From an uncultured Acidobacteriaceae bacterium (GTDB lineage: Bacteria; Acidobacteriota; Terriglobia; Terriglobales; Acidobacteriaceae), in NCBI GenBank assembly GCA_963820175.1, contig CAWFYX010000008.1, positions 99,318 to 163,317 on the forward strand: a DNA stretch of 64,000 nt, in the 5' to 3' direction. Both the position numbers and the translations under genes were made by a program. A model generated the notes under the pieces. The model saw nothing but the letters and a program-made list of their open reading frames with translations, had not been told where the DNA came from and searched no databases. Shown in pieces: positions 2,865 through 39,821 of the stretch (its first letter is position 1; each line of letters opens with the position of its first letter).

Positions 2865-3320
2865 ATGACCAAGACATGCTGGTTAGCCGGAATCCTGCTT
2901 CTGGCCGGATCTCTATTGCCGGCGCAGGCGCAAAACGCTTCTGACACGCAGGCCTGCCCGGGGAGCACGGTCGACAATCAGGGCGCCGATATCGCAAAGA
3001 TGTCGCGAGCTTTCCTAGCGGAGTTGCAGACTGCCGTCCACGAAGGCGACAAGACCAAAGTCGCCTCCATGATTTCCTATCCCCTGATGGTTATTCACGG
3101 CAGCCGCAGAACGCGCATCAAAACCAAGAGTGAATTTCTCGCGAGGTACGACACTATCTTTGATGCTCACGTCCAGAAGGCGATCGCGCAACAGTCCGCC
3201 CAGTGCCTGTTCGGCAATTATCAGGGAGCGATGATCGGCGACGGCGAGCTCTGGTTCGCCCAGCAACCGGACGGCGCGATGAAGATCATCACGGTGAATC
3301 CCACTGCCGGCAGTCAATAA
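2865..3320 (+). CDS. Secreted hypothetical protein
   Basis: ATG 2865 gives signal peptide MTKTCWLAGILLLAGSLLPAQAQ. The ORF-track start at 2772 is a TTG upstream. Confidence 0.65.
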   Translation: MTKTCWLAGILLLAGSLLPAQAQNASDTQACPGSTVDNQGADIAKMSRAFLAELQTAVHEGDKTKVASMISYPLMVIHGSRRTRIKTKSEFLARYDTIFDAHVQKAIAQQSAQCLFGNYQGAMIGDGELWFAQQPDGAMKIITVNPTAGSQ

Positions 3321-3338
3321 TTTTTATGTGAGGTGCTC

Positions 3339-4163
3339 ATGCAGCCGCAATCCGATGCCTCTGATTTTCAAGCGCTCAAAGCCCGCATGAAGGCAATGTG
3401 GACCTCTGGAGACTTCAGCCAGATCGCGCGGTTCATTGCCGCTGAGGGCGCCGAGTTTATTGCACGCTTGAACCCGCAGCCGGGCGACAAACTTCTCGAC
3501 GTAGCTTGCGGGACTGGCAACCTGGCCATCCCGGCCGCTCGCGCCGGCGCCATCGTCACCGGGGTCGACATTGCGCCGAACTCGCTGGCAGCCGCCAGGG
3601 AGCGGGCGAGGCAGGAAGGCTTGGCGGTGCAGTTCGACGAAGGCGATGCCGAGGATTTGCCTTATCCTGATGGGCAATTCGACGTAGTGGTCAGCATGTT
3701 TGGCGCGATGTTTGCGCCCCGTCCGGAAAAGACCGCAGCCGAACTGGCGCGGGTTTGCCGCTCCGGCGGCCTGATCGCCATGGCCAATTGGACGCCTCAG
3801 GGATTCATCGGGAAGAGCTTTCTGGTCTCCACCCGCTTCGCGCCGCCGCCGCCGGGCTTGCCCGGTCCCGTGCTTTGGGGAGAGGAATCGGTGGCGCGCG
3901 AACGCTTTGCCGGCGTCGACGGGGCATTCGAAGCGCAACGTCGCGAACTTATTTTCGACTACCCTTTCAGCCCGGCTGAGTTGGTGGAGTTCCATCGCAA
4001 GCATCTCGGCCCGGCGCAAGCGACCTACGCCCGGCTAGATGAAGACGGTCAACAGCAGTTTTCGGCGGAGATGGAGAAGCTCTACTCCACGCACAACGAA
4101 GGCGATGCTAACCGCACCGTGATTCGCGGCGAATACCTGGAAGTGTGGATGCGGAAGGCGTAA
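3339..4163 (+). CDS. Class I SAM-dependent methyltransferase
   Basis: Motif I LLDVACGTGNLAIPAARAG and a Methyltransf_11-like core (FDVVVSMFGAMF). ATG at 3339; GTG at 3333 is also possible. Confidence 0.85.
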   Translation: MQPQSDASDFQALKARMKAMWTSGDFSQIARFIAAEGAEFIARLNPQPGDKLLDVACGTGNLAIPAARAGAIVTGVDIAPNSLAAARERARQEGLAVQFDEGDAEDLPYPDGQFDVVVSMFGAMFAPRPEKTAAELARVCRSGGLIAMANWTPQGFIGKSFLVSTRFAPPPPGLPGPVLWGEESVARERFAGVDGAFEAQRRELIFDYPFSPAELVEFHRKHLGPAQATYARLDEDGQQQFSAEMEKLYSTHNEGDANRTVIRGEYLEVWMRKA

Positions 4164-4202
4164 AAGGCGCAACGGTAGACATTTTCCGTCAGATCCCAGC
4201 CT

Positions 4203-4664
4203 CTAGAAAGGGCTTGCCGGCCCGCGGCTAAACGCGGCCCTCACTCGTGCCTGCAGGAGGTAGAGCAGCAACGCGCCGGCGATTACGACGCCCGTCGCGC
4301 CCTTGACGAGGTGTCCCATGAGCGCGTTCACCAAATCACCCAGCATCTGGATCGCGATAATGATTACGGCCAGTCCCCAGCCCCAGAATCGGCGTTTGAA
4401 CCAGCCCGTCGCAGCGACCGCCAGGGCAGTGCTAAGCACCAGAAACAGCGGCCCGGCCACTCCCCGAACCGCGGCGAGTTGCTGATAAGCTGTGGGGTTC
4501 AATGCCCAGGTGCGGTCCAGAATTGTGCCCTGCCAAATCAGTGTCGTCCCCGCAAGAAGAGCCATGCCAGCGCCAAAGCACAGGAAAACGCCTACCACGA
4601 TCATCCCCGGTCGAGGCTCAGCTCGGACGGTTGCATGTAATCCGGAATAGGAACCACGCGTCAC
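4203..4664 (-). CDS. Hypothetical integral membrane protein
   Basis: 153-aa ORF with four hydrophobic helices; no recognisable family. Confidence 0.6.
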   Translation of the reverse strand: MTRGSYSGLHATVRAEPRPGMIVVGVFLCFGAGMALLAGTTLIWQGTILDRTWALNPTAYQQLAAVRGVAGPLFLVLSTALAVAATGWFKRRFWGWGLAVIIIAIQMLGDLVNALMGHLVKGATGVVIAGALLLYLLQARVRAAFSRGPASPF

Positions 4665-5257
4665 TGGTTGACTATAAACCTTAGTTCAGGCGGAGGTCCC
4701 CGCGGTTGATCGGCAGGCGCGGTCCGGTTGAGGCTTGGCCCCAGGGTAGAGCGGGCGAAGATTTCTCTTGCCCCTGCAACTTACCGAGGTCATCCTGCCT
4801 ATTAAAGGCTTCTGAATTTGAACCGCTGTCACCGCCCGTCGTGACCCTTGCACTTTCGCTTCTGCTCACTCGGTGCCAACCTGCCAGCAAGGAGATGAGC
4901 AAATGTGGCTCAAAACTCTTGCTGTCGTCGCCATCGTCCTCTTCTTCGCTTGACTCACCGCTGTGCTCCAGGGCTGGAGCAAGAGCAATATCCCAGGACG
5001 ACTGTTTAGCGCGGCCTTCCTGATCGGCATGGGCTTCGCCGCAGTCTGGGGAGTCAGACTGCTGTTTGGCCATCTCGTCCATTAATGCCGACGCTCGGCG
5101 TGTAATCCCCCTGCTCCCATGGTCGTCTGATCATGGTTCGTGGTGTATGCTGCACTTCTGAATCCAAGGCAAAGATTGGGACTAGTTCCTTGCGAGGTTT
5201 GGCGCGCGCGAAAACTAGAACGCTGTTTCTTGCCTGCAGTTAGCCGTTGCGCGACCC

Positions 5258-7612
5258 ATGCGAGCCAAAGCCCAGCCTCGGAAGTCTAAACCTACGCTGT
5301 TGATCATCGCGGGAGTCCTCGTGCTCGCGGCTGCGGGCTTAGTGGTTTGGCGCTGGTCTTCCGGGGCACGCGGGCAAGACACCAAGCCCGCTTCCGCAGC
5401 GACTTACGTGGGCGAGCAGCGCTGTGCCGAATGTCATGCCGAACAGGCCAAATTGTGGCGTGATTCGCATCACGCGCAAGCCATGCAAGTGTCGAATAAC
5501 GCTACCGTACTGGGCAATTTCGCCGACGCCCACTTTTCCAAAGATGGCGTCACATCCAGTTTCTTCAAGAAGGATGCCAAGTTCTACGTTCGCACCGACG
5601 GAGCCGACGGCAAGCCGCAGGACTTCGATTTGCCCTACACCTTCGGTGTCTTTCCCTTGCAGCAGTATCTGGTGCCGTTTCCCGCGGGACGCCTGCAGAG
5701 TTTCGTGGTCGCCTGGAATTCGTTGCCTAAAGATCGTAGCGGCCAGCAGTGGTTCGATCTTTATCCCGGGCAGAAGATCGCGCCCTCCGATCCCCTGCAC
5801 TGGACCGGTCCCAACCAGACGTGGAATTACATGTGCGCCGATTGCCACTCCACCAACCTGCGCAAGAATTACGATCTGGCCAAAGATAGCTACGCTACCA
5901 CCTGGTCAGAGATCGATGTCGCCTGCGAAGCCTGTCACGGCCCTGGCTCGAATCACGTGGCCTGGGCGCAATCGCGGAAAGGCTCCCACAATGTGGGATC
6001 CGGTAACGACGGCCTCACTGTCAATCTCCGGCCAGCCAGCGGAGGCTGGGCGGGTTCGGAGCCGGACACGGGAAGCATGCACTGGACGGGCGCGCCCCGC
6101 TCGCACCATGAAATCGATGCCTGCGCTCCCTGCCATTCGCGCCGCCATACCATCACCAGTGACTATCAGCCGGGCCAGCCTTTTCTCGACGCCTATGTGC
6201 CCAGCTTGCTGGAAGAAGGCGTTTACTATCCCGACGGACAGCTCCTGGAAGAAGATTACGAGTGGGGCTCATTCCTACAGAGTAGGATGTACCACGAAGG
6301 GGTAACCTGCTCCGACTGTCACGATCCGCACAGCGCCAAGCTGGCGTCCGACAACCTGAATGCCGTGTGCGGCAAGTGCCACTCTCTCGCCAAGTTCGGC
6401 ACCGAGCAGCATCACCATCACCCGGTCGGTAGCGCCGGCGCACTCTGCGTCAACTGCCACATGCCGACCCACACCTACATGGTCATCGATGTGCGCCGCG
6501 ATCACAGCCTGCGCGTGCCGCGGCCTGATTTCTCGCTGGCTTACGGCACGCCGAACGCCTGCAACCAGTGCCATAAAGACAAATCGATTCCCTGGGCTGT
6601 GGACGCGGTCGCAAAGTGGTACGGCGCCAATCGCCGGCAGGAGGTACATTTCGTCGAGGCCATCGATGCTGGCCGGCGCGGATTGCCCAGCGCGGAGAAA
6701 GATCTGACCGCGCTCATCACCGACACCGCGAAGCCCGGCATCGCGCGCGCCACCGCTCTCAACCTGCTTCCCGAATATCTGACACCGTCAGGGCTGCCGG
6801 CGGTACAAGCGGCGCTCAGTGATCAGGACGCGCTGGTGCGCCGCGAGGCGGTTCGAGGTCTCGATCCGCTGCCGCCGGGCGGGCGTGTTCGCCTGGCCGC
6901 GCCGTTACTCAACGATCCGATTCGCTCGGTGCGCATCGAAGCCGCGCGCCTGCTGGCTGGCACCCAGCCTAATCTGCTGCAGGAAAATCAGAAGACAGCG
7001 CTCGATCATGCGATCGCGGAGCTGATCGCCTCCGAGAACGCAAACGCCGATCGGCCGGAGAGCCACGTGAACCTCGCGCTGCTTTACACCCAGATGGGCC
7101 GAATCAGCGACGCCGAGAGCGAGTTGCATACCGCGCTGCGCCTCGATCCGCGTGACGTTCCCGCGATGGTCAACCTCGCCGATCTCTATCGCTCGCAGAA
7201 CCGCGATGACGAGGGCGAGCCTTGGTTGCAGAAGGCAATCGCGATCTCGCCCGAGGCCGCCGAGCCGCTGCATGCTTTGGGTTTGCTGAAGGTCAGGCAA
7301 AAGCAGTACCAGCAGGCGCTGAGCTTGCTGGCCAAGGCTGCGGCGTTGCAGCCCTCGCACGTCCAGTACAGCTACGTCTACGCGGTGGCGCTGAATTCCA
7401 CCGGCCAGCCCGACCAGGCGATCGCGATCTTGCAGCACGCTCATCAACGCCGCCCCGCCGATCGTCAGGTGCTGATGGGACTGATCGCCTTGGAGCGCGA
7501 CAAAGGCAACTTGCCCGCCGCCATCACCTACGCACAGCAATTGGTGCAACTGGCTCCCGACGATCCCGAGGCGAAGGCCACGCTGGCGCAGTTGCTCGGT
7601 CAGCGACCCTAA
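5258..7612 (+). CDS. Membrane-anchored multihaem (8 x CXXCH) cytochrome c fused to HEAT-like and TPR repeats
   Basis: N-terminal TM anchor. Eight CXXCH motifs (CAECH, CADCH, CEACH, CAPCH, CSDCH, CGKCH, CVNCH, CNQCH). C-terminal TPR-like repeats. Confidence 0.85.
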   Translation: MRAKAQPRKSKPTLLIIAGVLVLAAAGLVVWRWSSGARGQDTKPASAATYVGEQRCAECHAEQAKLWRDSHHAQAMQVSNNATVLGNFADAHFSKDGVTSSFFKKDAKFYVRTDGADGKPQDFDLPYTFGVFPLQQYLVPFPAGRLQSFVVAWNSLPKDRSGQQWFDLYPGQKIAPSDPLHWTGPNQTWNYMCADCHSTNLRKNYDLAKDSYATTWSEIDVACEACHGPGSNHVAWAQSRKGSHNVGSGNDGLTVNLRPASGGWAGSEPDTGSMHWTGAPRSHHEIDACAPCHSRRHTITSDYQPGQPFLDAYVPSLLEEGVYYPDGQLLEEDYEWGSFLQSRMYHEGVTCSDCHDPHSAKLASDNLNAVCGKCHSLAKFGTEQHHHHPVGSAGALCVNCHMPTHTYMVIDVRRDHSLRVPRPDFSLAYGTPNACNQCHKDKSIPWAVDAVAKWYGANRRQEVHFVEAIDAGRRGLPSAEKDLTALITDTAKPGIARATALNLLPEYLTPSGLPAVQAALSDQDALVRREAVRGLDPLPPGGRVRLAAPLLNDPIRSVRIEAARLLAGTQPNLLQENQKTALDHAIAELIASENANADRPESHVNLALLYTQMGRISDAESELHTALRLDPRDVPAMVNLADLYRSQNRDDEGEPWLQKAIAISPEAAEPLHALGLLKVRQKQYQQALSLLAKAAALQPSHVQYSYVYAVALNSTGQPDQAIAILQHAHQRRPADRQVLMGLIALERDKGNLPAAITYAQQLVQLAPDDPEAKATLAQLLGQRP

Positions 7613-9865: not shown

Positions 9866-10096
9866 TCAATGCCCCAGCTGATAAATCCGCAGCATCTCCA
9901 CCACGACCACGAAGATCCCAATCCCAAAATAGAGATTGCGCGCGACCTCGGTGCTGAGGGCAGCGGGCAGAGGCACGCCTCGCTGGCGGAAAACCAGCAC
10001 CAGCGACCGTTCGCGCTCGGTAATGAAGTCGGCAATACGCCGGTGTAAGCCCGCAATCAGCAGGCCAAGAAGAAGTCGCGCAATTTCCAGTGGCAT
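9866..10096 (-). CDS. Small hypothetical membrane protein (76 aa)
   Basis: Two hydrophobic segments and plausible codon usage, but no clear RBS. Confidence 0.35.
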   Translation of the reverse strand: MPLEIARLLLGLLIAGLHRRIADFITERERSLVLVFRQRGVPLPAALSTEVARNLYFGIGIFVVVVEMLRIYQLGH

Positions 10097-10224
10097 AGCA
10101 GAATCGTAGGCCGTGCCCCGCCACCGCTCAATAAGCCGAAAACCTTAAGCCGGAAGCTGGTCACACGGTACTGGGAAACCCGCGTTTTGTGCGTGCTAGA
10201 ATCCAAGCAGGCTCTGTTGTCCGG

Positions 10225-11031
10225 ATGAATTCCAATCTGCAAAACCTGATTGAGTTGCAACAGGTGGATGCGCGCATCGCCGCGGTCCGCGCCGAGGTTG
10301 CCGCTCTGCCCAAGGAAGTGGCGCGCATCGAAGCCAAACTGGCGGGCTCCAAAGCCGCGGTTGAGGCGGCGCAAACCGCCATCAAGGCTGACGAGGCCGC
10401 TCGCCGCAAGCATGAATCCGACATCAAGGACCAGCAGGAGAAGATCAGCAAGTATCGCGACCAGTCGCTGAAGGTCAAAACCAATCAGGAATACAAGGCG
10501 CTGCTGAGCGAGATTGAACACGCCGAATCCGAGATCCGCAAGCTGGAAGACAAGATTCTGGAGATCATGGTCGCGGCCGACACTCGCAAAGAAGGCTTGA
10601 AGCAGGCCGAGGCGACGCTGAAGGCCGACACCGCCGCCAACGAGAAAGAAAAAGAGCACGCCCGCCAGCAAACCGCCGAAGACGAGAAGCAGTTGGACGA
10701 ACTCAACGCTCAGCGCAAGCAGCTACGCGCGGGAATCGCCGAAGAGACTCTGACCCACTATGACCGCGTGCTGAAGCTGCGCGGCTCGGTCATGGCTGCG
10801 GTGTATGACGATGAGAGCTGCTCGGCCTGCCGCGTTGTGCTGCGTCCGCAGGTGTTTCAAGACGTGATGAGCAACGAGCAGATCGTCACCTGCTTCTACT
10901 GCAATCGCATTTTGTACTACGTTCCCCCGCCCCCCAAGCCGGAAGACGAAGCCAAGACCGCCAAAGCCGCTGCCGCCACAAAACCTGCCAAAGAGGAGTC
11001 TGTCGAAGCGGAGGACGCGGCAACCCAGTAG
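10225..11031 (+). CDS. Coiled-coil zinc-ribbon protein (COG1579/zf-RING_7-like)
   Basis: NLQNLIELQQVDARI start, long coiled coil, C-terminal CSAC...CFYC zinc ribbon. ATG at 10225. Confidence 0.8.
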   Translation: MNSNLQNLIELQQVDARIAAVRAEVAALPKEVARIEAKLAGSKAAVEAAQTAIKADEAARRKHESDIKDQQEKISKYRDQSLKVKTNQEYKALLSEIEHAESEIRKLEDKILEIMVAADTRKEGLKQAEATLKADTAANEKEKEHARQQTAEDEKQLDELNAQRKQLRAGIAEETLTHYDRVLKLRGSVMAAVYDDESCSACRVVLRPQVFQDVMSNEQIVTCFYCNRILYYVPPPPKPEDEAKTAKAAAATKPAKEESVEAEDAATQ

Positions 11032-11110
11032 ACTCTCCGTGGGAACTAACTTTGCGTTTCCGCAGTGGAGTGCGAAGCGCAGAAAACGAGCGCCGCAGGC
11101 GCGGAAGAGC

Positions 11111-25665: not shown

Positions 25666-27432
25666 ATGCGGGCCATCCACAAACGATTTAGTGTCGTCGC
25701 CGGCTTCGTCGTCCTGCTGATCGTCTTAGCCGTCAACACGCTGATCACCCGACGCCAGCTTGGGACGCAAGTCGAAGAGCATGAGTGGGTAGTACATACC
25801 GAGCAGGTGGTGCTCGAAGTCAGGCAGATCGAGGCGCTCCTGAGAGACGCTGAAACCGGGCAGCGCGGCTTCCTCTACACCGGCGATGCAAAATATCTGG
25901 CGCCTTACGACCTGGCCGCCGGTCAGGTTGACTCCCACATTCAGAAGCTGGCGGAGTTGACTACCGATAATCCCAGTCAACAACCGCGCATTGCCTTACT
26001 GCGCAAACTGGCTCACGACAAGCTGAACGAACTTGGCTTGACCATCACACTGTACCGCTCGGGTCAAGCGGAAGAAGCCCGGAGGGTAGTGCTCTCGAAC
26101 GCTGGCTTGTCCATGATGGAAGACATCCAGGCCGTGGTTAACCAAATGGTAGAGGCGGAGACTTCTCTGCTGGCGGAGCGCAGCGAGGCCTACCGGAAAA
26201 GCGTACGGGACACCGTCATCTCCATTTACCTGACCAGTATTGTTGCCGTGGTCGGACTGCTGCTGCTCGCCTACTACATATTGCACGAGATGGATCTCCG
26301 CGAGCGCCACGCCGCCCAGATGCGGGAACGCGAGCAGTGGTTCAGGGTCACCCTGACCAGCGTGGGCGATGGAGTGGTGGCTACTGATGACCAGGGATAT
26401 GTGACCTTTCTGAATCCCGTGGCTGAGGGGCTGATTGGGGCGACCCTGGCGGAGTTGCGGGGTCAGCCCATCCAGCAGGCCTTTCCCATCTTCAACGAAT
26501 ACACCCGTCAACCGATTGAAAATCCGGTTCGAAAAGTCATGGAATCAGGTCGCATCATCGGTCTCGCCAACCACACTGTGCTGCGCAAGCGGGATGGAAC
26601 CTTGATTCCGATCGAGGACAGCGCGGCGCCCATTCGCGACGATCAAGACCGGTTGGTGGGGGTTGTCCTGGTGTTCCGCGACGCAACCCATGATCGCAAG
26701 TCCCAAGAGGTTCTACGCAAGACCGAAAAGCTGGCCGCTGCCGCCCGCCTGGCCGCTACCGTGGCTCACGAAATCAACAATCCGCTGGAAGCCGTGGGCA
26801 ACTTGATCTACCTGGCGAAAGCGACAGCCGGCCTGCCTGAGGTCGCCACCCGACACCTGACGATCGCTGAGAGCGAACTGGAGCGAGTCTCCCACATCAC
26901 CCGCCAGACGCTGGGTTTTTATCACGAATCCAATGCTCCTGACCGGGTGGAAGTGCCGGCACTGGTCGAGTCTGTACTGAAACTCTATGCCAATAAACTC
27001 AGAAGCAAGAATATTGTCGTAGAGTGCGATCTGGGCGAGTGCCCTCCCATCCAGGGTTGGCCGGGGGAACTGAAACAACTTATCTCCAACCTGGTTTCCA
27101 ATGCCGCCGACGCGGTGAGCGCGAACGGAACTCTGAACGTCAAGTTGTCGTGTGTGGAAAATCCCGATGGCAATCACGTTCAGCTCATCATTGCAGATGA
27201 TGGCCACGGGATTGCGGCCGAACACATGAGCCGAATCTTCGAGCCGTTCTTCACCACCAAGAAAGATGTCGGCACCGGCCTGGGCTTGTGGGTCGCCCGG
27301 GAAATTGCGGAGCGGCATGGCGGTACCATTGAGGTTGAGTCGCGCACCGATCCTGTCTCCCATGGCACAGTGTTTACCGTCTTGTTGGCATGCAGCGCCC
27401 ATCTTCAGAGCCATGCTGCTGAAATGGCGTGA
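25666..27432 (+). CDS. CHASE3-PAS sensor histidine kinase
   Basis: TM anchor, CHASE3 signature (WVVHTEQV...DAETGQRGFLYTGDAKYLAPY), PAS, H-box VAHEINNPL and a HATPase_c domain. No response regulator is adjacent. Confidence 0.85.
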   Translation: MRAIHKRFSVVAGFVVLLIVLAVNTLITRRQLGTQVEEHEWVVHTEQVVLEVRQIEALLRDAETGQRGFLYTGDAKYLAPYDLAAGQVDSHIQKLAELTTDNPSQQPRIALLRKLAHDKLNELGLTITLYRSGQAEEARRVVLSNAGLSMMEDIQAVVNQMVEAETSLLAERSEAYRKSVRDTVISIYLTSIVAVVGLLLLAYYILHEMDLRERHAAQMREREQWFRVTLTSVGDGVVATDDQGYVTFLNPVAEGLIGATLAELRGQPIQQAFPIFNEYTRQPIENPVRKVMESGRIIGLANHTVLRKRDGTLIPIEDSAAPIRDDQDRLVGVVLVFRDATHDRKSQEVLRKTEKLAAAARLAATVAHEINNPLEAVGNLIYLAKATAGLPEVATRHLTIAESELERVSHITRQTLGFYHESNAPDRVEVPALVESVLKLYANKLRSKNIVVECDLGECPPIQGWPGELKQLISNLVSNAADAVSANGTLNVKLSCVENPDGNHVQLIIADDGHGIAAEHMSRIFEPFFTTKKDVGTGLGLWVAREIAERHGGTIEVESRTDPVSHGTVFTVLLACSAHLQSHAAEMA

Positions 27433-27510
27433 CGTATCGCAGAAGAAAGAGCTGGGATACAGGACGTAGCCGCTTGCCGTCGTGGGATAATCGCAAACAT
27501 AGGTGAGTTG

Positions 27511-29715
27511 ATGAAGCGAGTGGTTCACGCTGCCTGCCCGCACGATTGTCCCGACGGCTGCGCGGTGCTCATCACCGTCGATGATGGACGGGCAACCAAG
27601 ATCGAAGGCGATCCCCAGCATCCCATCACCCGCGGATTCCTGTGCGGCAAAGTTGCGAAGTATCTTGATCGGGTTTATTCGCCCGACCGCGTGCTCTATC
27701 CCATGCGGCGCGTGACAGCGAAAGGAACCCACGGCGAGGGTGCATTGCGGCGCATCACCTGGGACGAAGCCTTCGACGAGATCTGCACGCGCCTGAAAAC
27801 GATCAGCGCGGAGTTTGGACCGGAAGCGGTTCTGCCCTTCTCCTACGGCGGCAACATCGCCGTGCTTAACGGCGCGTCGATGGACATGCGCTTCTTCCAT
27901 CGCCTGGGCGCCTCGCAACTGCACCGCAGTATCTGCTCGCAGGCGGGCGGTGACGCCATCGTCTCCATCTACGGACGCAAGATCGGCACCGAACCGGAGC
28001 AGTTCCGCCAGTCCCGCTACATCATCGCCTGGGGCGCCAACATCCACGGCAACAACATTCATTTGTGGCCGTTCATCGAGGAAGCACGCCGGGCCGGCGC
28101 GAAACTGGTAGTCATCGATCCCTATCGCACCCGCACCGCGCGCGTAGCCGACTGGCATATCCCGATCAATCCTGGCACCGATGTCGCGCTGGCCATGGGA
28201 TTGATGCACATCATCGTGCGTGAAGGCTGGCATGACGCCGACTACCTCGCGCGGTACGCTGAGGGTTTCGACGAGTTGGAGAAGCGTCTGCCGGAGTACA
28301 CACCCGAGCGCGTTGCCCAGTGGACGGGCATCGCCAAGGACGACATCGAGCGCCTGGCGCGCGAATACGCCACCACGCGGCCAGCAGCAATCCGGCTGAA
28401 CTACGGGATCCAGCGCGCGCAAAATGGTGGAGCAGCGGTGCGCGCCGTCTGTATGTTGCCCATCCTGATCGGATCGTGGAAGGAAATCGGCGGCGGACTG
28501 CAGCTGTCCACCAGCGGCGGCTTCCAGCTCGACCGTGCCGCTATGGAGCGGCGGGATCTGATGCTGAAGAGTCCGCTGGGACATCCGCCGCGCACCATCA
28601 ACATGGTGCAGTTGGGACGAGCTCTCACCGAACTCAACGATCCTCCCGTCAAAGCGCTGGTGGTGTACAACAGCAATCCCGCCGCAGTTTGTCCGGAACA
28701 GCAGTTGGTGACGCGCGGCTTGCGGCGCGACGATCTGTTCACGGTGGTCCACGAGCAGTTCTTCACCGACACCACCGACTACGCCGACATCGTGCTTCCC
28801 GCAACCACGTTCTTCGAGCACAAGGACCTGGTGCAGGCCTACGGACACTATTACTTGCAGGTGTCGCATCAGGCGATCGAGGCGCTCGGGGAGTGCAAGT
28901 CCAATGTGGATTTCTTTCGCGAGCTGGCGCTGCGCATGGGCTTCGACGACGAATGTTTCCGCCAGCCGGTCGACGCCATGATCGACGCCGCCCTGGCCGC
29001 GGGCGTGCCGCAGCTGGCGGGCATCACCCGCGAACGTCTGGAGAACGATCCGCATGTGCGGTTGAATTTGAATGGGGGCCACAACGATTTACCGCGGGTG
29101 CTGGACAGCACGGTATCGGTGGAAGGGTACGGCTTTAGCCGTGCCGAAGACCGCTCTGTTGATTCGGGCTTTAGCCCTGGTGCACCCTGGCTACCGTTTG
29201 CCAATGGATTTCCCACGCCCACCGGGAAGGCGCGAATCTATGACGGAGAGTTGATCGCCCACGGAATGGATCCGGTGGCCTCGTTCATTCCACCGGAAGA
29301 GTCGCGGCACCAGGCTGCAGCCCAGCGCTATCCTCTGGAGTTACTGGCGCGGAAAGCGGACAACTTCCTGAACTCTACCTTCGTCAATCATCCCAGCCAT
29401 CAGAAAATGGAACGGCAGCAGAAGGATCTGGAAATCTCTGCAGACGATGCGAAACCTCGAGGCATCGCCGATGGCGACCGGGTTCGGATCTTCAACGATC
29501 GCGGCGAGATTTTTCTGCGCGCGCGGGTCGATGGATCGGTACGGCCGGGTGTGGTCGGCGCCAAACTGGGCTGGGCCAAACTGTCGGAGGGCGGCTTCAA
29601 CATCAACCTGCTCACCTCCGACCGGCTTACCGATCTGGGTGGTGGTGCTACGTTCTATTCCACTCTGGTGGAAGTGGAACGCGCCGACGCAACTTCCAGC
29701 GCCTCCGAGGGTTAG
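27511..29715 (+). CDS. Molybdopterin (DMSO-reductase family) oxidoreductase with N-terminal 4Fe-4S motif
   Basis: CPHDCPDGC...C cluster motif; 735 aa with MopB and C-terminal molydopterin dinucleotide-binding-type regions. Confidence 0.85.
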   Translation: MKRVVHAACPHDCPDGCAVLITVDDGRATKIEGDPQHPITRGFLCGKVAKYLDRVYSPDRVLYPMRRVTAKGTHGEGALRRITWDEAFDEICTRLKTISAEFGPEAVLPFSYGGNIAVLNGASMDMRFFHRLGASQLHRSICSQAGGDAIVSIYGRKIGTEPEQFRQSRYIIAWGANIHGNNIHLWPFIEEARRAGAKLVVIDPYRTRTARVADWHIPINPGTDVALAMGLMHIIVREGWHDADYLARYAEGFDELEKRLPEYTPERVAQWTGIAKDDIERLAREYATTRPAAIRLNYGIQRAQNGGAAVRAVCMLPILIGSWKEIGGGLQLSTSGGFQLDRAAMERRDLMLKSPLGHPPRTINMVQLGRALTELNDPPVKALVVYNSNPAAVCPEQQLVTRGLRRDDLFTVVHEQFFTDTTDYADIVLPATTFFEHKDLVQAYGHYYLQVSHQAIEALGECKSNVDFFRELALRMGFDDECFRQPVDAMIDAALAAGVPQLAGITRERLENDPHVRLNLNGGHNDLPRVLDSTVSVEGYGFSRAEDRSVDSGFSPGAPWLPFANGFPTPTGKARIYDGELIAHGMDPVASFIPPEESRHQAAAQRYPLELLARKADNFLNSTFVNHPSHQKMERQQKDLEISADDAKPRGIADGDRVRIFNDRGEIFLRARVDGSVRPGVVGAKLGWAKLSEGGFNINLLTSDRLTDLGGGATFYSTLVEVERADATSSASEG

Positions 29716-33356: not shown

Positions 33357-34738
33357 ATAACGAGGTTGGCCCCAAACCGGGTAGTCTGTTTTTTTGCGAA
33401 AGGCAGAGGACCCAGAAGGAGCCAACCATGTGGATTATAGGTTGTGATTTTCATTCTGGGTTTCAGCAGTTAGCGATCTTTGACAGTCAGAGCGGAGAGA
33501 TCGAGGAGAAGAAGCTGCTCCATCCCGGCGAGGCCATAGAGTTTTATCGTGGCCTGCAGGGAGAAGTGCTGGTGGGGATGGAGTCGGGCTGTCCCTGTCA
33601 GTGGTTCCGGCGGTTGTTAGAGGAGTGCGGCCACCAGCTGTGGATGGGCGATGCGGGGCGCATTCGAGCGGCCGAAACCCGGCAGCAGAAGACGGACCGG
33701 CGGGATGCGGAGCTGATCCTGAGGCTGCTGCTGGAGGGGCGGTTTCCGCGCATTTGGGTGCCGACGGAGGCGGAGCGCGACTTGCGGCAGTTGCTGCTGG
33801 ACCGGCATCATCGCATGCGGCTGCGGACCAAGGTGAAGAACCAGCTGCAGGCGCTGGCGCTGAACCAGGGAGTGCAGAAGGGGCGGCGGCTGTGGTCGCT
33901 GGAAGGCAGGCAGCAGCTGCAGGCATTGCCCATGCTGGAGCACGCGGGACGGCGGCGCGATCAGTTGCTGAAGTCGTTAACTGAGCTGGACGCGCAGATT
34001 CTGGCCCTGGACGTGGTGGTGCGGCGGGAAGCCGAGGGGCGGGCAGAGGCGCGGCGGCTGATGACTCATCCTGGCGTGGGACCGCAGACGGCGCTGGGCA
34101 TGGTGCTGACCGTGGGCGAGGTGAATCGCTTCGCCACGAGCAAGCAGGTGGCCAGCTATCTGGGGCTGACCCCACGCGAGCACAGCTCGGGCGGCAAGCA
34201 GCGGCTGGGACACATCAGCAAACAGGGATCCAGCTTTATGCGCTTCCTGCTGGTGGAAGCGGGCCAGACGGCGGTGCGCGGCGATGAGGAGTTACAGCGA
34301 GCCTATCGCCGGCTGGCCGCTAAAAAAAGCCGGGGCGTGGCCAAGGTGATGGTGGCGCGGCGGCTGGCCGTCAGGTTGTACTGGATGCTCCGTAAGGGAT
34401 GGACGTACACGGAGCTGGCACGTCATGCGGGTAAGCCCGGGTCATTCCGTGGGGAGCAGTAGGGCCCCGTGCGTTTGTTTGGGCAGCCCGCCTCCCCGGT
34501 AGCGGGGAGTTCGCAGTGGAGAATCATGGTCGCAGTCGGTGACCGAATAGATGGATGGTGGGGCCAGCGCGCCGCCACCTAACGATTCCAAAGCAGACGG
34601 GTCCTCGATGCCGATTTCGCAAACAGCAAAGGCCACCCCAACGTCAAAGGCAAAGGCGCTGGGGAATAAGGAAAGTCAAAAACCAGGCGCCTACCGCGTC
34701 ACCGCCGCAGTGTGCCTTGACAACCCCAACCTCGTTAT
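33357..34738 (+). mobile_element. IS110-family insertion sequence, IS1111-like subgroup
   Basis: 13-bp inverted repeats ATAACGAGGTTGG (33357-33369) and CCAACCTCGTTAT (34726-34738) bracket the transposase gene. The left non-coding end is short (70 bp) and the right one long (276 bp). Confidence 0.8.
33428..34462 (+). CDS. IS110-family (DEDD) transposase/recombinase
   Basis: MWIIGCDFHSGFQQLAIFD... N-terminal DEDD domain and a C-terminal Transposase_20-like region (LMTHPGVGPQTAL...LGLTPREHSSGGKQRLGHISKQG). Confidence 0.9.
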   Translation: MWIIGCDFHSGFQQLAIFDSQSGEIEEKKLLHPGEAIEFYRGLQGEVLVGMESGCPCQWFRRLLEECGHQLWMGDAGRIRAAETRQQKTDRRDAELILRLLLEGRFPRIWVPTEAERDLRQLLLDRHHRMRLRTKVKNQLQALALNQGVQKGRRLWSLEGRQQLQALPMLEHAGRRRDQLLKSLTELDAQILALDVVVRREAEGRAEARRLMTHPGVGPQTALGMVLTVGEVNRFATSKQVASYLGLTPREHSSGGKQRLGHISKQGSSFMRFLLVEAGQTAVRGDEELQRAYRRLAAKKSRGVAKVMVARRLAVRLYWMLRKGWTYTELARHAGKPGSFRGEQ

Positions 34739-34787: not shown

Positions 34788-34817
34788 TTGACGCTGGTAA
34801 GCGCACTTCCCTATAAT
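34788..34817 (+). promoter_or_regulatory. Near-consensus sigma70-type promoter upstream of skp
   Basis: TTGACG (34788-34793), 18-nt spacer, TATAAT (34812-34817); about 165 nt upstream of the skp ATG and just downstream of the IS110-family element. Confidence 0.45.
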
Positions 34818-34981
34818 TGCCATATCCGCACCGCCGAATTTTCCGGCCGGGTGGCGTGGTCATCCGCGTTCCATGCGAACGACCGTTTCCCGGCAGTCCA
34901 GATCAAGACGCAGCGGGACCGCGTACATCCCTGGAACACCTGAGGAATTCCCGGAGCAGTTCAAGGAGCTACACCAACTCA

Positions 34982-35698
34982 ATGAAGCGCAAGTTCGTAG
35001 GCACAGCCGTGCTCGCTCTTGTCCTGGCAATGACGGCCATGGCCCAAACTGGTTCGGCCGCTCACTCCGCCGCCGCAACCCCCACGCCCTCAACTTCTAC
35101 GGCTGCCGCCGCAACCAGTACCGGCTCCGGTGCCGTCAAGGTCGGTATCATTGACATTCAGCAGGCCATCATTGGCACCAACGAAGGTGCCCGTGATTTC
35201 GATGCCTTGCAGAAGAAGTTTGAGCCTCGCCGCAGCGAGTTGTCGAACCTGAACACCGAAATCGAGAACCTGAAGAAGCAGCTCAGCACTCAGGGCGACA
35301 AAATGAACGAGCAGGCGCACGCCGACCTGGTGAAGAGCATCGAGACCAAGCAGAAGAGCTTGCAGCGCTCGGCGGAAGACGCCCAGAACGATTACCAGCA
35401 GCAGTCCAACGAGATTGCCCAGCGCATCCTGCAGAAGATGGCGCCGGTAATCGACAAGTATGCCAAATCCAATGGCTATGGACTGCTGTTCGACTCGTCG
35501 AATCCCTGGCCGCAGGGTCCACTGCTCTGGGCGACCGCGACCGTCGATCTCACCAAAATCGTGGTGGACGCCTATAACGCCCAGTCCAACGTTCCGGCCC
35601 CGCCCGCGAAGCCCGCAGGCACGCCCGGCGCCGCAATGAATAAGCCGACGACAACAACGCCGGCTGCGGCCGCGAAACCAGCCCCGGCGACACACTGA
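34982..35698 (+). CDS. skp: OmpH/Skp-family periplasmic chaperone
   Basis: Signal peptide MKRKFVGTAVLALVLAMTAMAQ, a coiled-coil OmpH core, and a position downstream of bamA. Confidence 0.85.
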   Translation: MKRKFVGTAVLALVLAMTAMAQTGSAAHSAAATPTPSTSTAAAATSTGSGAVKVGIIDIQQAIIGTNEGARDFDALQKKFEPRRSELSNLNTEIENLKKQLSTQGDKMNEQAHADLVKSIETKQKSLQRSAEDAQNDYQQQSNEIAQRILQKMAPVIDKYAKSNGYGLLFDSSNPWPQGPLLWATATVDLTKIVVDAYNAQSNVPAPPAKPAGTPGAAMNKPTTTTPAAAAKPAPATH

Positions 35699-35737: not shown

Positions 35738-37253
35738 AGGCTGTTACGAAACTGTAACTAGTAATCCACAAGAAGTGATGGGAAGATGCCCTTGCGAAAG
35801 TGAGGGCATTTTCTTTGGCGTACATCGAGGGTGAGGCGCGCGGGCAGCACACGTTGTTTCCTTCCACATTGGACGATCTGATCCCCCATGATCATGTGTG
35901 TCGAGTGATCGAGGCGTTCGTGGACAAGCTGTCGATGGAGAAACTAGGGTTTGTGCGGGCGGAGCCGGCGGAAACGGGACGTCCGGGATACGATCCGCGC
36001 GATCTGCTGAAGCTGTATTTATACGGGTACCTGCATCAGGTGCGCTCGTCGCGGCGTTTGGAGGCCGAGTGCCGGCGGAATGTGGAGGTGATGTGGCTGC
36101 TGGGGCGGCTGGTTCCGGATTACAAGTCGATCGCCGAGTTCCGGCGCATGCATCGAGAGGCGGTGAGCCGAGCGGGATCGGAGTTAGTGGGGTGGGCGCG
36201 GCAGGTGGGGCTGGTGAAGGGCGAATGGGTAGCGATTGACGGCTCAAAGTTCCGCGCTGTAGCCAGCGTTGCCACGGTACGCGAACGGGAAGCGGTGAAG
36301 CGCTATCTGGATCAACTGGAGAGCGCCGACGAGCACGAGGAAGTGGTCATCGACCCGAGTGCCGTGGCAGCGGCGCTGGAGAAGCTGAAGAACGATGCGG
36401 AGCCGGAAGCGCGTTTCATGCGCATGGCGCACGATGAGTTTGCCCCGGCTTACAACGTGCAGACGGCCGTCGATGCCGAGCACGGGATCATCGTGGCGCA
36501 GCAGGTGACGGCGCAGGCTGGCGACAACCGGTGCCTGCAGCCAATGGCCGAGGCCGCCAAAGCCGCTCTGGAAAATCCAGAAAGACTGAACGTTGTGGCC
36601 GATGCGGGCTACTCGAATGGTGAGCAGGCCGAACCCTGCGAGCAACAGGGCATCCTGCCACACGCTCCCGCCAATCGCTCGATCAACAATCAAGGCGATG
36701 GCAGTCTGTTCGACCGCAGTCTGTTTGTTTATGACGAGAAGACCGACAGCTTCCGCTGCCCGGCGGGCCAGCCGTTGCTGCGAAAACAGCTATCGAGAAA
36801 AGATCGTTGCGTGATGTACGCTGCTGCCGCGCGTGTCTGCGGATCGTGCCCGCTGAAACCGCGCTGCACAACTCGCTCGCGACGCCTGATCACCCGCCAT
36901 CTGCACGAAGGCGCACTCGACAGAATGAATGCGCGAGCCACGGCCGCGATCATGCGCCTGCGCCGATGCACGGTGGAACGGCCCTTCGCCGTGCTCAAAC
37001 ACGTCATCTTCGGCAACGCTCGCTTCCTGCTGCGCGGCCTAACCGGAGCACAAACCGAGATCAGCCTGGCGACCATGGCCTACAACCTGAAGACAATGCT
37101 GAACGTGCTCGGCGCGGCCGCCTTGGCTCGGGCATAACCGCTCCATCGTCAGCAGCAGCAGCAGCAACCTCTTGCTCTGAAAACAAAAACGGCGCTCCAG
37201 ACATCGGAGCACCGTCTTTATGCCGTTCAGAGAGGCTCGTTTCGTAACAGCCT
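35738..37253 (+). mobile_element. IS1182-like (IS5 superfamily) insertion sequence
   Basis: Perfect 15-bp terminal inverted repeats AGGCTGTTACGAAAC (35738-35752) and GTTTCGTAACAGCCT (37239-37253), flanked by direct repeats CCGTGAG (35731-35737 and 37254-37260). Confidence 0.8.
35800..37137 (+). CDS. IS1182-family transposase
   Basis: GQHTLFPSTLDDLIPHDHVCRVIEAFVD...GRPGYDPRDLLKLYLYGYLHQVRSSRRLEAEC...MWLLG N-terminal signature and a DDE C-terminal region. Confidence 0.9.
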   Translation: MRAFSLAYIEGEARGQHTLFPSTLDDLIPHDHVCRVIEAFVDKLSMEKLGFVRAEPAETGRPGYDPRDLLKLYLYGYLHQVRSSRRLEAECRRNVEVMWLLGRLVPDYKSIAEFRRMHREAVSRAGSELVGWARQVGLVKGEWVAIDGSKFRAVASVATVREREAVKRYLDQLESADEHEEVVIDPSAVAAALEKLKNDAEPEARFMRMAHDEFAPAYNVQTAVDAEHGIIVAQQVTAQAGDNRCLQPMAEAAKAALENPERLNVVADAGYSNGEQAEPCEQQGILPHAPANRSINNQGDGSLFDRSLFVYDEKTDSFRCPAGQPLLRKQLSRKDRCVMYAAAARVCGSCPLKPRCTTRSRRLITRHLHEGALDRMNARATAAIMRLRRCTVERPFAVLKHVIFGNARFLLRGLTGAQTEISLATMAYNLKTMLNVLGAAALARA

Positions 37254-37692: not shown

Positions 37693-39243
37693 TCAAATTC
37701 CCGATCCGCCTTCGAATATCTTCTGCATCTGGTAGGGATAAACCCGGTAGAGCGCGTAGTCGATGCCGGTGTCGGAGTACAGCCGGAAAAGCAGGTCTCC
37801 GCGCCCGTTGGCATCGGCATCTACGGCATCGATAATCTCCATTCGCGAGAATGCGTCGAGGTGATTGCTGTCCGTCACCGAGCTGAAGATCTTGATGGGG
37901 GTGCCGTTGACATCTTCGCGCGCCACTACCGTTACGTAGTAGTTGAACCCGTCACCGCGTAGCGCCTTGGCGCCATCCACTGGCAACTTCGCGGTGAATA
38001 CCAGCGTAGGCGAGTTGCTGTAATCGAGGTCGAAACAGCGCAGATCGTAGTCAGTGATAGTCGCGCTTTTCGGCAAGGCCGGGGTCTTGCGCTGACCAAT
38101 AAACTTCCGGATCTCGTCCATCGCGATGGCGCCCATCTGTTGCGACTTGTCCACCCTCTCCGAGGTGCCCATCGCGTACAGCAGGGACCGCATCTGGTAA
38201 CTGCCGGCATCGGAAACCGCCGGATAAGAGCGATGTCCCAATGTCGCCAGAGTGCTGGTGACCTTAGCTCGCGCCTGCTCGGTCGCCGTGGGCGGTTTCG
38301 TGCCAGCGGCGGAGGCAGGTTGAGACTGAGCGGCCTCGGCGGCGGACTTGCCTCGGCGCAGTGTCGGCCGGCTGGGATCGTTTTCGTTGGTGTCTGAGGT
38401 TGGTGGCGCCGCGTTCGCAGCCGCTGCCGGATTCGCCGACTTCCCGGCATTGTCTGACAGCGTCGGAGTTGACGATGCCGTGGAGCTTGCCGGCGAAGTG
38501 CTTTGCGCCGGGGAATTGTTCTTCAGCGTGGGCCGGTCAGGATCGTCATTCGAGGGCGGTGGGGCGTTGCCGGCGGAAGAACTGCCGCTTCCAGAAGAAG
38601 CCGGACTGGCGGGCGAAGTTCCCGAACCGGAGGAGCCGCTCGATCCGGCACGGTGTAATACCGGCCGGTCGTCGTCGGGATTGGACGGGGCTTTCTTTTT
38701 CGGCTGCTGCGCCGCTTGCTGCGCCAGCTTTTCGTCCATGGCCAGGTGCGGAGTCCAGTGGCCGTCGGCAACCCAGTTTCCGTTGACCTCTTTAGGAGTG
38801 GTGACCGTGAACAATCCCGTCGGCTCGCCGTAGTCCGTGGCCTGGTAAACGGTTTGCGGTTCAACCGCCAGGGGTTCGGGATTGGCGGCATAGAGGCTGG
38901 CATCGTAGAAGCGATCGTCGATCCAGATCGCAATCGGCACCAGCCGGGTTCCGCCTCCCGGCAGAAACTCAACCACGCCGATGGCGCGCGCCCCGCGCTT
39001 GGCATTCTTGGCGGGACCGTGGCTTTGATCGGCCGGCGGCTGTTGGTGACCGTGGGTGTGGTCCTGAAGCACTTGCGCGACGCTGCTCAGACTGAACAGT
39101 GCGACAGCCAGCAAAGTGGCGATGGCCCGGCGGCCAGATTTGCGGTATAGATAATGCGATATGGAAATCAACTCGAAAGCTCCCAGCTTCACTCTGCCCG
39201 ACGAAAACGGTAACCCGGTTTCGCTCGACCAGTTTCGCGGCAA
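37693..39243 (-). CDS. Secreted hypothetical protein with long Ser/Pro/Ala-rich low-complexity region
   Basis: Signal-like RRAIATLLAVALFSLSSVAQ. The start is uncertain: the only ATG (39243) would overlap the divergent bcp gene by 83 nt, and a TTG at 39114 is the alternative. Confidence 0.65.
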   Translation of the reverse strand: MPRNWSSETGLPFSSGRVKLGAFELISISHYLYRKSGRRAIATLLAVALFSLSSVAQVLQDHTHGHQQPPADQSHGPAKNAKRGARAIGVVEFLPGGGTRLVPIAIWIDDRFYDASLYAANPEPLAVEPQTVYQATDYGEPTGLFTVTTPKEVNGNWVADGHWTPHLAMDEKLAQQAAQQPKKKAPSNPDDDRPVLHRAGSSGSSGSGTSPASPASSGSGSSSAGNAPPPSNDDPDRPTLKNNSPAQSTSPASSTASSTPTLSDNAGKSANPAAAANAAPPTSDTNENDPSRPTLRRGKSAAEAAQSQPASAAGTKPPTATEQARAKVTSTLATLGHRSYPAVSDAGSYQMRSLLYAMGTSERVDKSQQMGAIAMDEIRKFIGQRKTPALPKSATITDYDLRCFDLDYSNSPTLVFTAKLPVDGAKALRGDGFNYYVTVVAREDVNGTPIKIFSSVTDSNHLDAFSRMEIIDAVDADANGRGDLLFRLYSDTGIDYALYRVYPYQMQKIFEGGSGI

Positions 39244-39619
39244 GAACGTGGTTCTGTTCTTCTACCCCAAAGCCAACACGCCCGGCTGAACCATCGAAGC
39301 GTGCGGGTTCCGCGACGCATACAGCAAGCTGCAAAAGGCCGGACTGGTCGTTCTGGGCATCTCCCCCGACACCCCGAAGGCGCAATTAAAGTTTAAAGAA
39401 AAGCATGACCTGCCGTATACCTTGCTGGCCGACGACAAAAAAGAGGTCGCCAGGAAGTTTGACGTGCTGAAAGAGAAAAACATGTACGGCAAGAAGGTCA
39501 TGGGGATCGTCCGCACCACATTTTTGATCGGCCCGGACAGCAAGATCGTCCACATTTTCAGCCCCGTCAAGCCCGAAGGCCACGCCGAGGAGGTGCTGGA
39601 ACTGGTGAAGAAGAGTTAG
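39161..39619 (+). CDS. bcp: Bcp/PrxQ-type peroxiredoxin with in-frame TGA (39287-39289) at the peroxidatic Cys position; candidate selenoprotein
   Basis: A single frame gives MEINSKAPSFTLPDENGNPVSLDQFRGKNVVLFFYPKANTPG-TGA-TIEACGFRDAY...LIGPDSKIVHIF...; the TPG(C/U)TxxxC motif is otherwise intact. Confidence 0.6.
39299..39318 (+). promoter_or_regulatory. SECIS-like stem-loop downstream of the bcp TGA
   Basis: GCGT-GCGG-GTT-CCGC-G-ACGC: an 8-bp stem with one bulged G and a GUU loop. It starts 9 nt after the TGA, and the loop G is about 18 nt from the UGA. Confidence 0.45.
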
Positions 39620-39821
39620 ACCTACAATTGCGGATCGGCAGGGTGGCGGAACTTCGAGCTGCTTGCAGATGGCGCGGACCGTCCTTTTTGATTTCTCGGG
39701 GACGAGGAACACTGGCTATCTTGCGGCGTTGAGGGTTGATCCACACTGAATGCGCGCCACCCTCGCGAAATAGCACACAGGAATGTTGGCGCAGGTCTCG
39801 CTCAAGGTGTGCATGTTTCAT
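39567..39821 (-). CDS. hicA: HicA-like mRNA interferase toxin, C-terminus probably frameshifted at an A5 run
   Basis: LRQHSCVLFREGGAHSVWINP...ASVPRPREIKK matches the HicA pattern. The expected continuation RTVRAICKQLEVPPP lies in another frame after 39685-39689. Confidence 0.55.
   Translation of the reverse strand: MKHAHLERDLRQHSCVLFREGGAHSVWINPQRRKIASVPRPREIKKDGPRHLQAARSSATLPIRNCRSNSSSPVPAPPRRGLRA

Follow-up and report, generated by a model that had tools for sequence, protein, structure and literature searches.

A bcp/prxQ peroxiredoxin gene with a probable selenocysteine codon at the peroxidatic position in an uncultured Acidobacteriaceae bacterium

The DNA analysed here is a 64,000-nucleotide stretch of contig CAWFYX010000008.1 from an uncultured Acidobacteriaceae bacterium (assembly GCA_963820175.1, positions 99,318 to 163,317 of the forward strand), which is referred to as the window. 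It harbors a complete bcp gene for a peroxiredoxin (Prx) of the BCP/PrxQ type whose reading frame contains a UGA codon at the position of the catalytic cysteine (Cys). This UGA, codon 43 of the gene, very probably encodes selenocysteine (Sec). The interpretation had been proposed in a sequence-only reading of the window, and it is supported by the conservation of the TGA across genomes, by the constant register of a downstream hairpin, and by a freeze of synonymous sites in this hairpin that is specific to TGA carriers.

Reading frame and family of the bcp gene

The bcp coding sequence extends from 39161 to 39619 on the plus strand and comprises 152 codons, with an ATG start, a TAG stop (39617-39619), and one UGA that is read through. 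Translation of the window reveals the TGA at 39287-39289 as the sole in-frame interruption of this frame. With a Cys put at the TGA, the product matches the Pfam family PF00578 (AhpC-TSA) over residues 3-131 (E = 9e-42, 142.3 bits against a cutoff of 26) and the NCBIfam profile NF006960 (thioredoxin-dependent thiol peroxidase, 156 positions) over residues 4-151 (161.6 bits against a cutoff of 140). The nearest structures in the PDB are those of bacterial BCPs: the best match is 5enu_A (E = 8e-37, residues 2-149), and the BCP of Xanthomonas campestris (3GKK/5IIZ) is matched as well. Full-length orthologues with 93-95 % identity to the window gene exist.

The sequence context of the codon, FFYPKANTPG-[TGA]-TIEAC, corresponds to the peroxidatic position of the PxxxTxxC motif. 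The catalytic motif of the window protein is thus made up of P36, T40, U43 (TGA), and the conserved R118, of which P36, T40, and R118 are identical throughout the 81 aligned sequences (the window and 80 related loci). Codon 48 (TGC, 39302-39304, plus strand) encodes the resolving Cys in the CxxxxC arrangement, five residues beyond codon 43, a spacing that marks the atypical 2-Cys subtype. The full-length Bcp/PrxQ frame from ATG 39161 with a single TGA, as described in the sequence-only reading, is therefore borne out by translation and by both profiles, and the placement of the TGA at the peroxidatic Cys, with the resolving Cys five residues on, is verified in the sequence. The warning that ordinary gene calling would truncate or miss the gene was also justified: a mechanical listing of open reading frames (ORFs) reduces bcp to a 42-residue N-terminal and a 65-residue C-terminal piece, so that gene callers would miss it. 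Judged by its sequence, the product is a BCP/PrxQ thioredoxin-dependent peroxidase in which Sec would replace the peroxidatic Cys, and peroxidase activity is predicted.

Codon 43 and the downstream hairpin in related genomes

The comparison set consists of 80 loci that encode the bcp protein, with one genome per species (GTDB representatives). Nearly all of them are metagenome-assembled genomes (MAGs) of Acidobacteriota/Terriglobia from soils and peat. The codon aligned with codon 43 of the window is TGA in 26 loci, TGC in 48, and TGT in six; the 26 TGA loci and the window together form the 27 TGA forms, which are compared with 54 Cys forms. The TGA carriers originate from Nanopore MFD bins, from Illumina MAGs assembled with MEGAHIT and SPAdes (SMAG, binchicken), and from SPRUCE peat MAGs. 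Since these sequencing and assembly methods are independent of each other, a shared artefact is excluded.

All 27 TGA genes begin with ATG, contain exactly one internal stop, and end in a normal stop 150-158 codons later. Their mean pairwise nucleotide diversity at codon positions 1, 2, and 3 amounts to 0.21, 0.14, and 0.51 upstream of the TGA and to 0.21, 0.14, and 0.52 downstream of it. The diversity by codon position is the same on both sides, which indicates that the downstream part is under protein-level purifying selection and hence that the UGA is translated. In a neighbour-joining tree, the TGA forms fall into one large clade, and TGC and TGT forms are interspersed. This pattern corresponds to the familiar dynamic exchange between Sec and Cys. 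The complete hairpin sequence of the TGA-carrier type, GCGTGCGGGTTCCGCGAC, is still present in two TGC forms, L002 (codons 43-53, around 3127-3160) and L037 (same positions). This is consistent with recent Sec-to-Cys conversions that have left behind a “fossil” of the selenocysteine insertion sequence (SECIS).

The close full-length homologues that were read in the databases all contain Cys, save one that is mistranslated with Trp and one that is frameshifted. In the gene call P0002, the TGA is translated as W at the Sec position, and the protein P0048 runs in a shifted frame through this region (FFYPEGQHSRMNHRSVRVPRRIQ).

The hairpin at 39299-39318 (plus strand) is under RNA-level selection. 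It starts 9 nt after the UGA and is built from a 5′ arm (39299-39306), a GUU loop (39307-39309), and a 3′ arm (39310-39318) that contains a bulged G at 39314. It folds as GCGUGCGG-GUU-CCGC(G)ACGC, with 8 bp in total. The core is a 4-bp GCGG/CCGC upper stem, and four further pairs are located below the bulge. The UGA and the loop are separated by 17 nt, which places the loop G 18 nt after the UGA. RNA folding thus reproduces the 8-bp GC-rich stem, the bulged G, the GUU loop, and the loop G about 18 nt from the UGA that had been read from the letters. Orthologues with TGA and a conserved stem-loop had been named as a test of the Sec interpretation, and the 26 TGA loci are such orthologues: the same hairpin is found in the same register in 27 of 27 TGA genes.

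The hairpin is visible in the codon choice of the TGA forms. Across codons 48-53, their third-position entropy drops to 0.19 bits, compared with a gene-wide mean of 1.17, which makes this the lowest six-codon window in the gene. In the Cys forms, the same codons have 1.25 bits against a mean of 1.34, and the lowest window is found elsewhere (codons 106-111). Gly49 is encoded by GGG in 25 of 25 Gly codons of the TGA forms but only in four of 34 in the Cys forms, and Asp52 is GAC in all 27 TGA forms compared with 27 of the 54 Cys forms. Ala47 is exclusively GCG or GCT in the TGA forms and GCC in 43 of 54 Cys forms. In the window, the hairpin reads GCG TGC GGG TTC CGC GAC GCA, exactly the codons found specifically in TGA carriers.

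Folded over the 42 nt that start at the UGA, the TGA genes have minimum free energies (MFE) between -8.7 and -17.3 kcal/mol. With a median of -11.5, these genes are more stable in this stretch than the Cys forms with -8.0 (Mann-Whitney p = 1.3e-7, uncorrected for phylogeny). Pairing is preserved where the sequence of the stem changes. The loop-closing G-C pair is replaced by a compensatory A-U pair in L010 and L011, and C17-G28 becomes the fourth stem pair in L010, L011, and L052, with U27 bulged in place of G28. In the variants in which codon 48 has changed from TGC to CGC, the U-A pair with the G bulge is converted to a C-G pair with an A bulge.

Bacterial SECIS (bSECIS) elements, as summarised in PMC13188914, are characterized by an apical loop of 3-9 nt with a G within its first two positions that is followed by G or U, an upper stem of 4-16 bp, a spacing of 16-37 nt between UGA and loop, and an MFE of at most -7.5 kcal/mol. 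The window hairpin falls within all of these limits (loop GUU with G then U, 4-bp upper stem, 17 nt spacing, MFE -11.5 kcal/mol), and the compatibility with bacterial SECIS geometry that had been suggested for it is thereby upheld against the published values. Like the archetypes fdhF and fdnG of E. coli (bSECISearch model per PMC13188914 Fig. 2), it is a coding-region hairpin immediately 3′ of the UGA, with a small apical loop in which G is followed by U and with a GC-rich upper stem. Its apical loop consists of the minimal triloop GUU, which would widen to the pentaloop GGUUC on opening of the closing pair; the likeness is structural, and binding by SelB is predicted.

In the proposed mechanism, the hairpin that begins 9 nt past the UGA would act as a bacterial SECIS through its GUU apical loop on the GC-rich 4-bp upper stem. 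SelB-GTP with Sec-tRNA(Sec) would bind the hairpin loop and place Sec at the UGA that occupies the A site of the ribosome, which would yield the full-length 152-residue enzyme rather than a 42-residue fragment. In the enzyme, the P36/T40/R118 triad would position the selenolate of U43, which would reduce the peroxide and thereby become a selenenic acid. The selenenic acid would probably be resolved by Cys48 as a selenenylsulfide, and thioredoxin would recycle the enzyme. Sec insertion in this organism, the SelB-hairpin contact, and the catalytic chemistry are all predictions of this scheme.

The resolving Cys itself is variable in the Sec forms. Residue 48 is Cys in 54 of 54 Cys forms, while 10 of the 27 Sec forms have Cys, 13 have Arg, and four have Ser; the loss in 17 of 27 Sec forms versus none of 54 Cys forms gives a Fisher p of 7e-11, uncorrected for phylogeny. 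The loci without Cys48 (L004-L007, L009-L011, L017, L029, L034, L042, L043, L046, L052, L054, L058, and L068) occupy at least four separate places on the tree. As codon 48 is part of the 5′ arm, this site is subject to the constraints of the RNA and of the protein at once: the TGC-to-CGC change by which the Cys is lost also turns a U-A/U-G pair into C-G. Sec may render the resolving Cys dispensable, or optimisation of the SECIS may drive its loss. It is conceivable, though somewhat doubtful, that the gain of Sec at the peroxidatic position is coupled to the loss of the resolving Cys in the acidobacterial Bcp clade. Selection acting on the recoding RNA would then interact with selection acting on the enzyme mechanism, and together they would drive a switch of the atypical 2-Cys cycle to a one-selenol cycle with direct reduction of the selenenic acid. 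With Sec and a retained Cys48, the window gene would represent an intermediate.

Decoding machinery and competing explanations

Several observations weigh against Sec at codon 43. No selA, selB, selD, or tRNA-Sec gene is present in the 64-kb window: ARAGORN detects no tRNA and no tRNA-Sec in it, and Rfam at gathering thresholds gives no matches. Sec decoding in the window's own organism is therefore something we infer from its relatives. Very close relatives carry Cys, namely L002 and also P0001 and P0003 at 93-94 % identity, which suggests that Sec is dispensable and quickly losable. The fold of the 60 nt from the UGA (60 % GC) is no more stable than that of shuffled sequences (MFE -16.6 versus -16.3 +/- 2.9, z = -0.11), so the hairpin by itself proves nothing, and it is the comparative pattern that exceeds chance. 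A formal covariation test in two registers detected one pair that is changed on both sides, probably in a single event, with a score not above that of shuffles. Because covariation is weak, the argument for an RNA element rests on group-specific conservation, that is, on the suppression of synonymous sites.

The decoding machinery is found in relatives. SelA and SelB of Solibacter usitatus, taken from the supplement of PMC1794560, were used as queries in a local tblastn against the window and the 80 loci. The sole match is a selB gene in L008, a TGA carrier of the window's subclade that shares the arrangement of ompH, a 514-aa gene, and bcp. This selB is complete (634 aa, 3455-5359, minus strand) and convergent to the Sec-bcp (3001-3444, plus strand), ending 10 nt from its stop. 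L008 is labelled “Candidatus Binatia”, which is probably a binning or label error, as its bcp region is syntenic with the window and 83 % identical in DNA. None of the other 79 loci has a selB within 3 kb of bcp. As selB is thus not located next to bcp in any TGA carrier but L008, its absence from the window is uninformative.

SelB proteins with 75-80 % identity to that of L008 are numerous and are named Candidatus Korobacteraceae or Terriglobales at NCBI. In five Korobacteraceae contigs, a tRNA-Sec with the anticodon TCA is located 1.9 kb downstream of selB (9808-9904 in L083, 9812-9908 in L084-L087). In L084-L087, a phage-integrase gene follows directly after the tRNA-Sec at 9936-11099 (truncated in L084, 9936-10427), which suggests that the tRNA-Sec is used as an integration site. 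A candidate for a second selenoprotein beside selB in L081 was rejected, as the CxxC of this CMD/AhpD-like gene is ordinary and its stop is normal. The Korobacteraceae SelB records are linked to the MAGs JBARGS, JBAPTV, JBLFKL, and JBKQPQ, and none of them to the TGA-bcp MAGs JBAVSY or JBEKQR; a direct link of selB and TGA-bcp on the same contig is given by L008 only. Sec use in the phylum is documented for Solibacter usitatus, in which SelA, SelB, and a Sec-containing FdhA are present (PMC1794560), and for Occallatibacter riparius with three known selenoprotein genes (PMC12013277).

Among the alternatives, the one that survives best is a genuine UGA in an organism that has lost the Sec machinery, in which case translation would stop at the codon and the gene would be dead, or near-cognate tRNAs would insert Cys or Trp there at a low rate. 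It would fit the window without visible sel genes, the frequent switches between Sec and Cys in this clade, and the position directly downstream of bcp, which is taken by selB in L008 and by other genes in the window. Yet selB is not adjacent to bcp in the other TGA carriers either, the ORF and the hairpin of the window are intact without signs of decay, and both SelB and tRNA-Sec occur widely in the family. Loss of the machinery is therefore improbable.

A still smaller probability is given to the view that the TGA arose through faulty sequencing or assembly, or through a nonsense mutation of very recent date, so that the gene would in truth be a Cys-type bcp or a newly formed pseudogene. TGC and TGA differ by a single base, Cys forms at 93-94 % identity are known, many of the related MAGs were assembled from Nanopore data, and the frameshift of P0048 affects precisely this region. 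The sequence-only reading had likewise raised an error or mutation from TGC or TGT, and it had cautioned that the window contains many indels and other in-frame stops. The same TGA, however, recurs in 26 other species-level genomes obtained with different technologies, including L001 and L003, the closest syntenic relatives of the window, and the window has the hairpin codons of TGA carriers. The conservation of the TGA across genomes that are about 20 % diverged in DNA, together with the coding constraint downstream of it, speaks against such an error or nonsense mutation to the point of exclusion.

The caution about indels does not apply to the bcp locus either. The window shares ompH, a 516-aa gene, bcp, DUF4440, and relA in synteny with L001 and L003, at a nucleotide identity of about 80-88 %, and its alignment with L001 is free of gaps over 2096 nt of relA and 873 nt of ompH. 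This argues against an indel-ridden assembly at the locus, where the bcp ORF is otherwise undamaged. A scan of the window based on the GC content at third codon positions (GC3) yielded no other credible in-frame TGA; its further in-frame-stop candidates run antisense to Pfam-supported genes, such as the one at 26545 (minus strand) opposite a CHASE3 histidine kinase.

A genome-wide reassignment of UGA (e.g. to Trp or Gly), with an ordinary amino acid at codon 43, would be in line with the W in the metagenome gene call P0002 but is nearly negligible, as TGA serves as an ordinary stop in the window (nine of 15 other window genes checked end in it; 14 of the 15 are Pfam-supported, with full-length domain matches), the long window ORFs are intact under table 11, and a catalytic Trp or Gly would inactivate an enzyme whose remaining active site is invariant.

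Genomic surroundings, related systems, and significance

In the region 39140-39160, a TATAGATAAT-like A/T-rich box ends roughly 7 nt upstream of the bcp start codon, and no Shine-Dalgarno sequence is obvious. The position of the box and the missing Shine-Dalgarno hint at a leaderless bcp mRNA or one with a very short leader. A consensus promoter scan at bcp found nothing. About 50 nt beyond the stop codon, a consensus scan marks a possible, weak intrinsic terminator (39668-39693, plus strand) that consists of a 5-bp stem and a T-rich tail; with four such sites found versus 1.4 expected, the evidence for it is weak.

Divergently to bcp lies the gene for a conserved 516-aa protein (37693-39243, minus strand) that has no Pfam match and a low-complexity middle part rich in Pro, Ser, and Ala. 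Its longest ORF, with a TTG start, overlaps the start of bcp by 83 nt, so that its true start is probably located further in. The pairing of this gene with bcp is preserved in L001, L003, L008, and others. Between the 516-aa gene and ompH (34817-35698), a DDE_Tnp_1/DUF772 insertion sequence encodes a transposase (35800-37137, plus strand), and the syntenic loci L001, L003, and L008 lack an insertion at this site. A second transposase, of the IS110 family, is encoded at 33428-34462 (plus strand). Further upstream, an intact molybdopterin oxidoreductase of 735 aa (27508-29715, plus strand) contains Fe4S4, Molybdopterin, and Molydop_binding domains and has no in-frame TGA; it may be a Cys-type enzyme akin to formate dehydrogenase or a nitrate reductase.

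Prx (PF00578, TxxU) is an established bacterial selenoprotein family (PMC13188914, PMC5029168), for which 91 proteins from 78 organisms were tallied in 2016 (PMC5029168). A Bcp-type Sec protein, “Anaeromyxobacter_dehalogenans_1”, is already included in the 2006 data set of Zhang et al. (Genome Biol 7:R94, PMC1794560). This Prx of Anaeromyxobacter dehalogenans shares the BCP/PrxQ-type architecture with the window protein (151 versus 152 aa, 55 % identity over 147 residues) and has U at the matching position (FFYPKANTSGUTQEA versus FFYPKANTPGUTIEA). It differs in its full motif, FFYPKANTSGUTQEASDFRD, in which a Ser stands where the window protein has the resolving Cys, and it belongs to the Myxococcota instead of the Acidobacteriota.

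The Cys-type BCP/PrxQ proteins (E. coli Bcp family, NF006960) have the fold family, the catalytic Pro/Thr/Arg, and the CP-x4-CR spacing of atypical 2-Cys BCPs in common with the window protein, but they use a peroxidatic Cys and their genes have no recoding signal. PrxU is an experimentally shown Sec-Prx of Eubacterium/Peptoclostridium acidaminophilum. It resembles the window protein as a thioredoxin-dependent peroxiredoxin with a peroxidatic Sec and a decoding hairpin just downstream of the UGA. The window protein nevertheless belongs to a different Prx subfamily, as it scores 40.2 bits against NF040737 (peroxi_PrxU) with a cutoff of 270.

In the literature accessible to us, no publication was found that describes Sec-Bcp specifically in Acidobacteriota, and such entries may well exist in BSepDB (PMC13326102) and other large databases. 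The Sec-Bcp class has been known since 2006 and Sec use is known in Acidobacteriota; the window gene is an unannotated further member.

The outcome is an annotation correction and a useful Sec/Cys series, and no new mechanism is revealed. Roughly one in three of the sampled species-level genomes of relatives carries the Sec form. Since standard gene callers split or drop Sec-bcp, Cys forms are over-represented in protein databases. For the Acidobacteriota that abound in soil and peat (Korobacteraceae/Terriglobales), this leads to an under-count of both the selenium dependence and the repertoire of peroxide defence. The series is well populated and recently diverged, and it includes the apparent Cys revertants with a “fossil” hairpin (L002 and L037), which makes it usable for studying why and when Sec replaces Cys.

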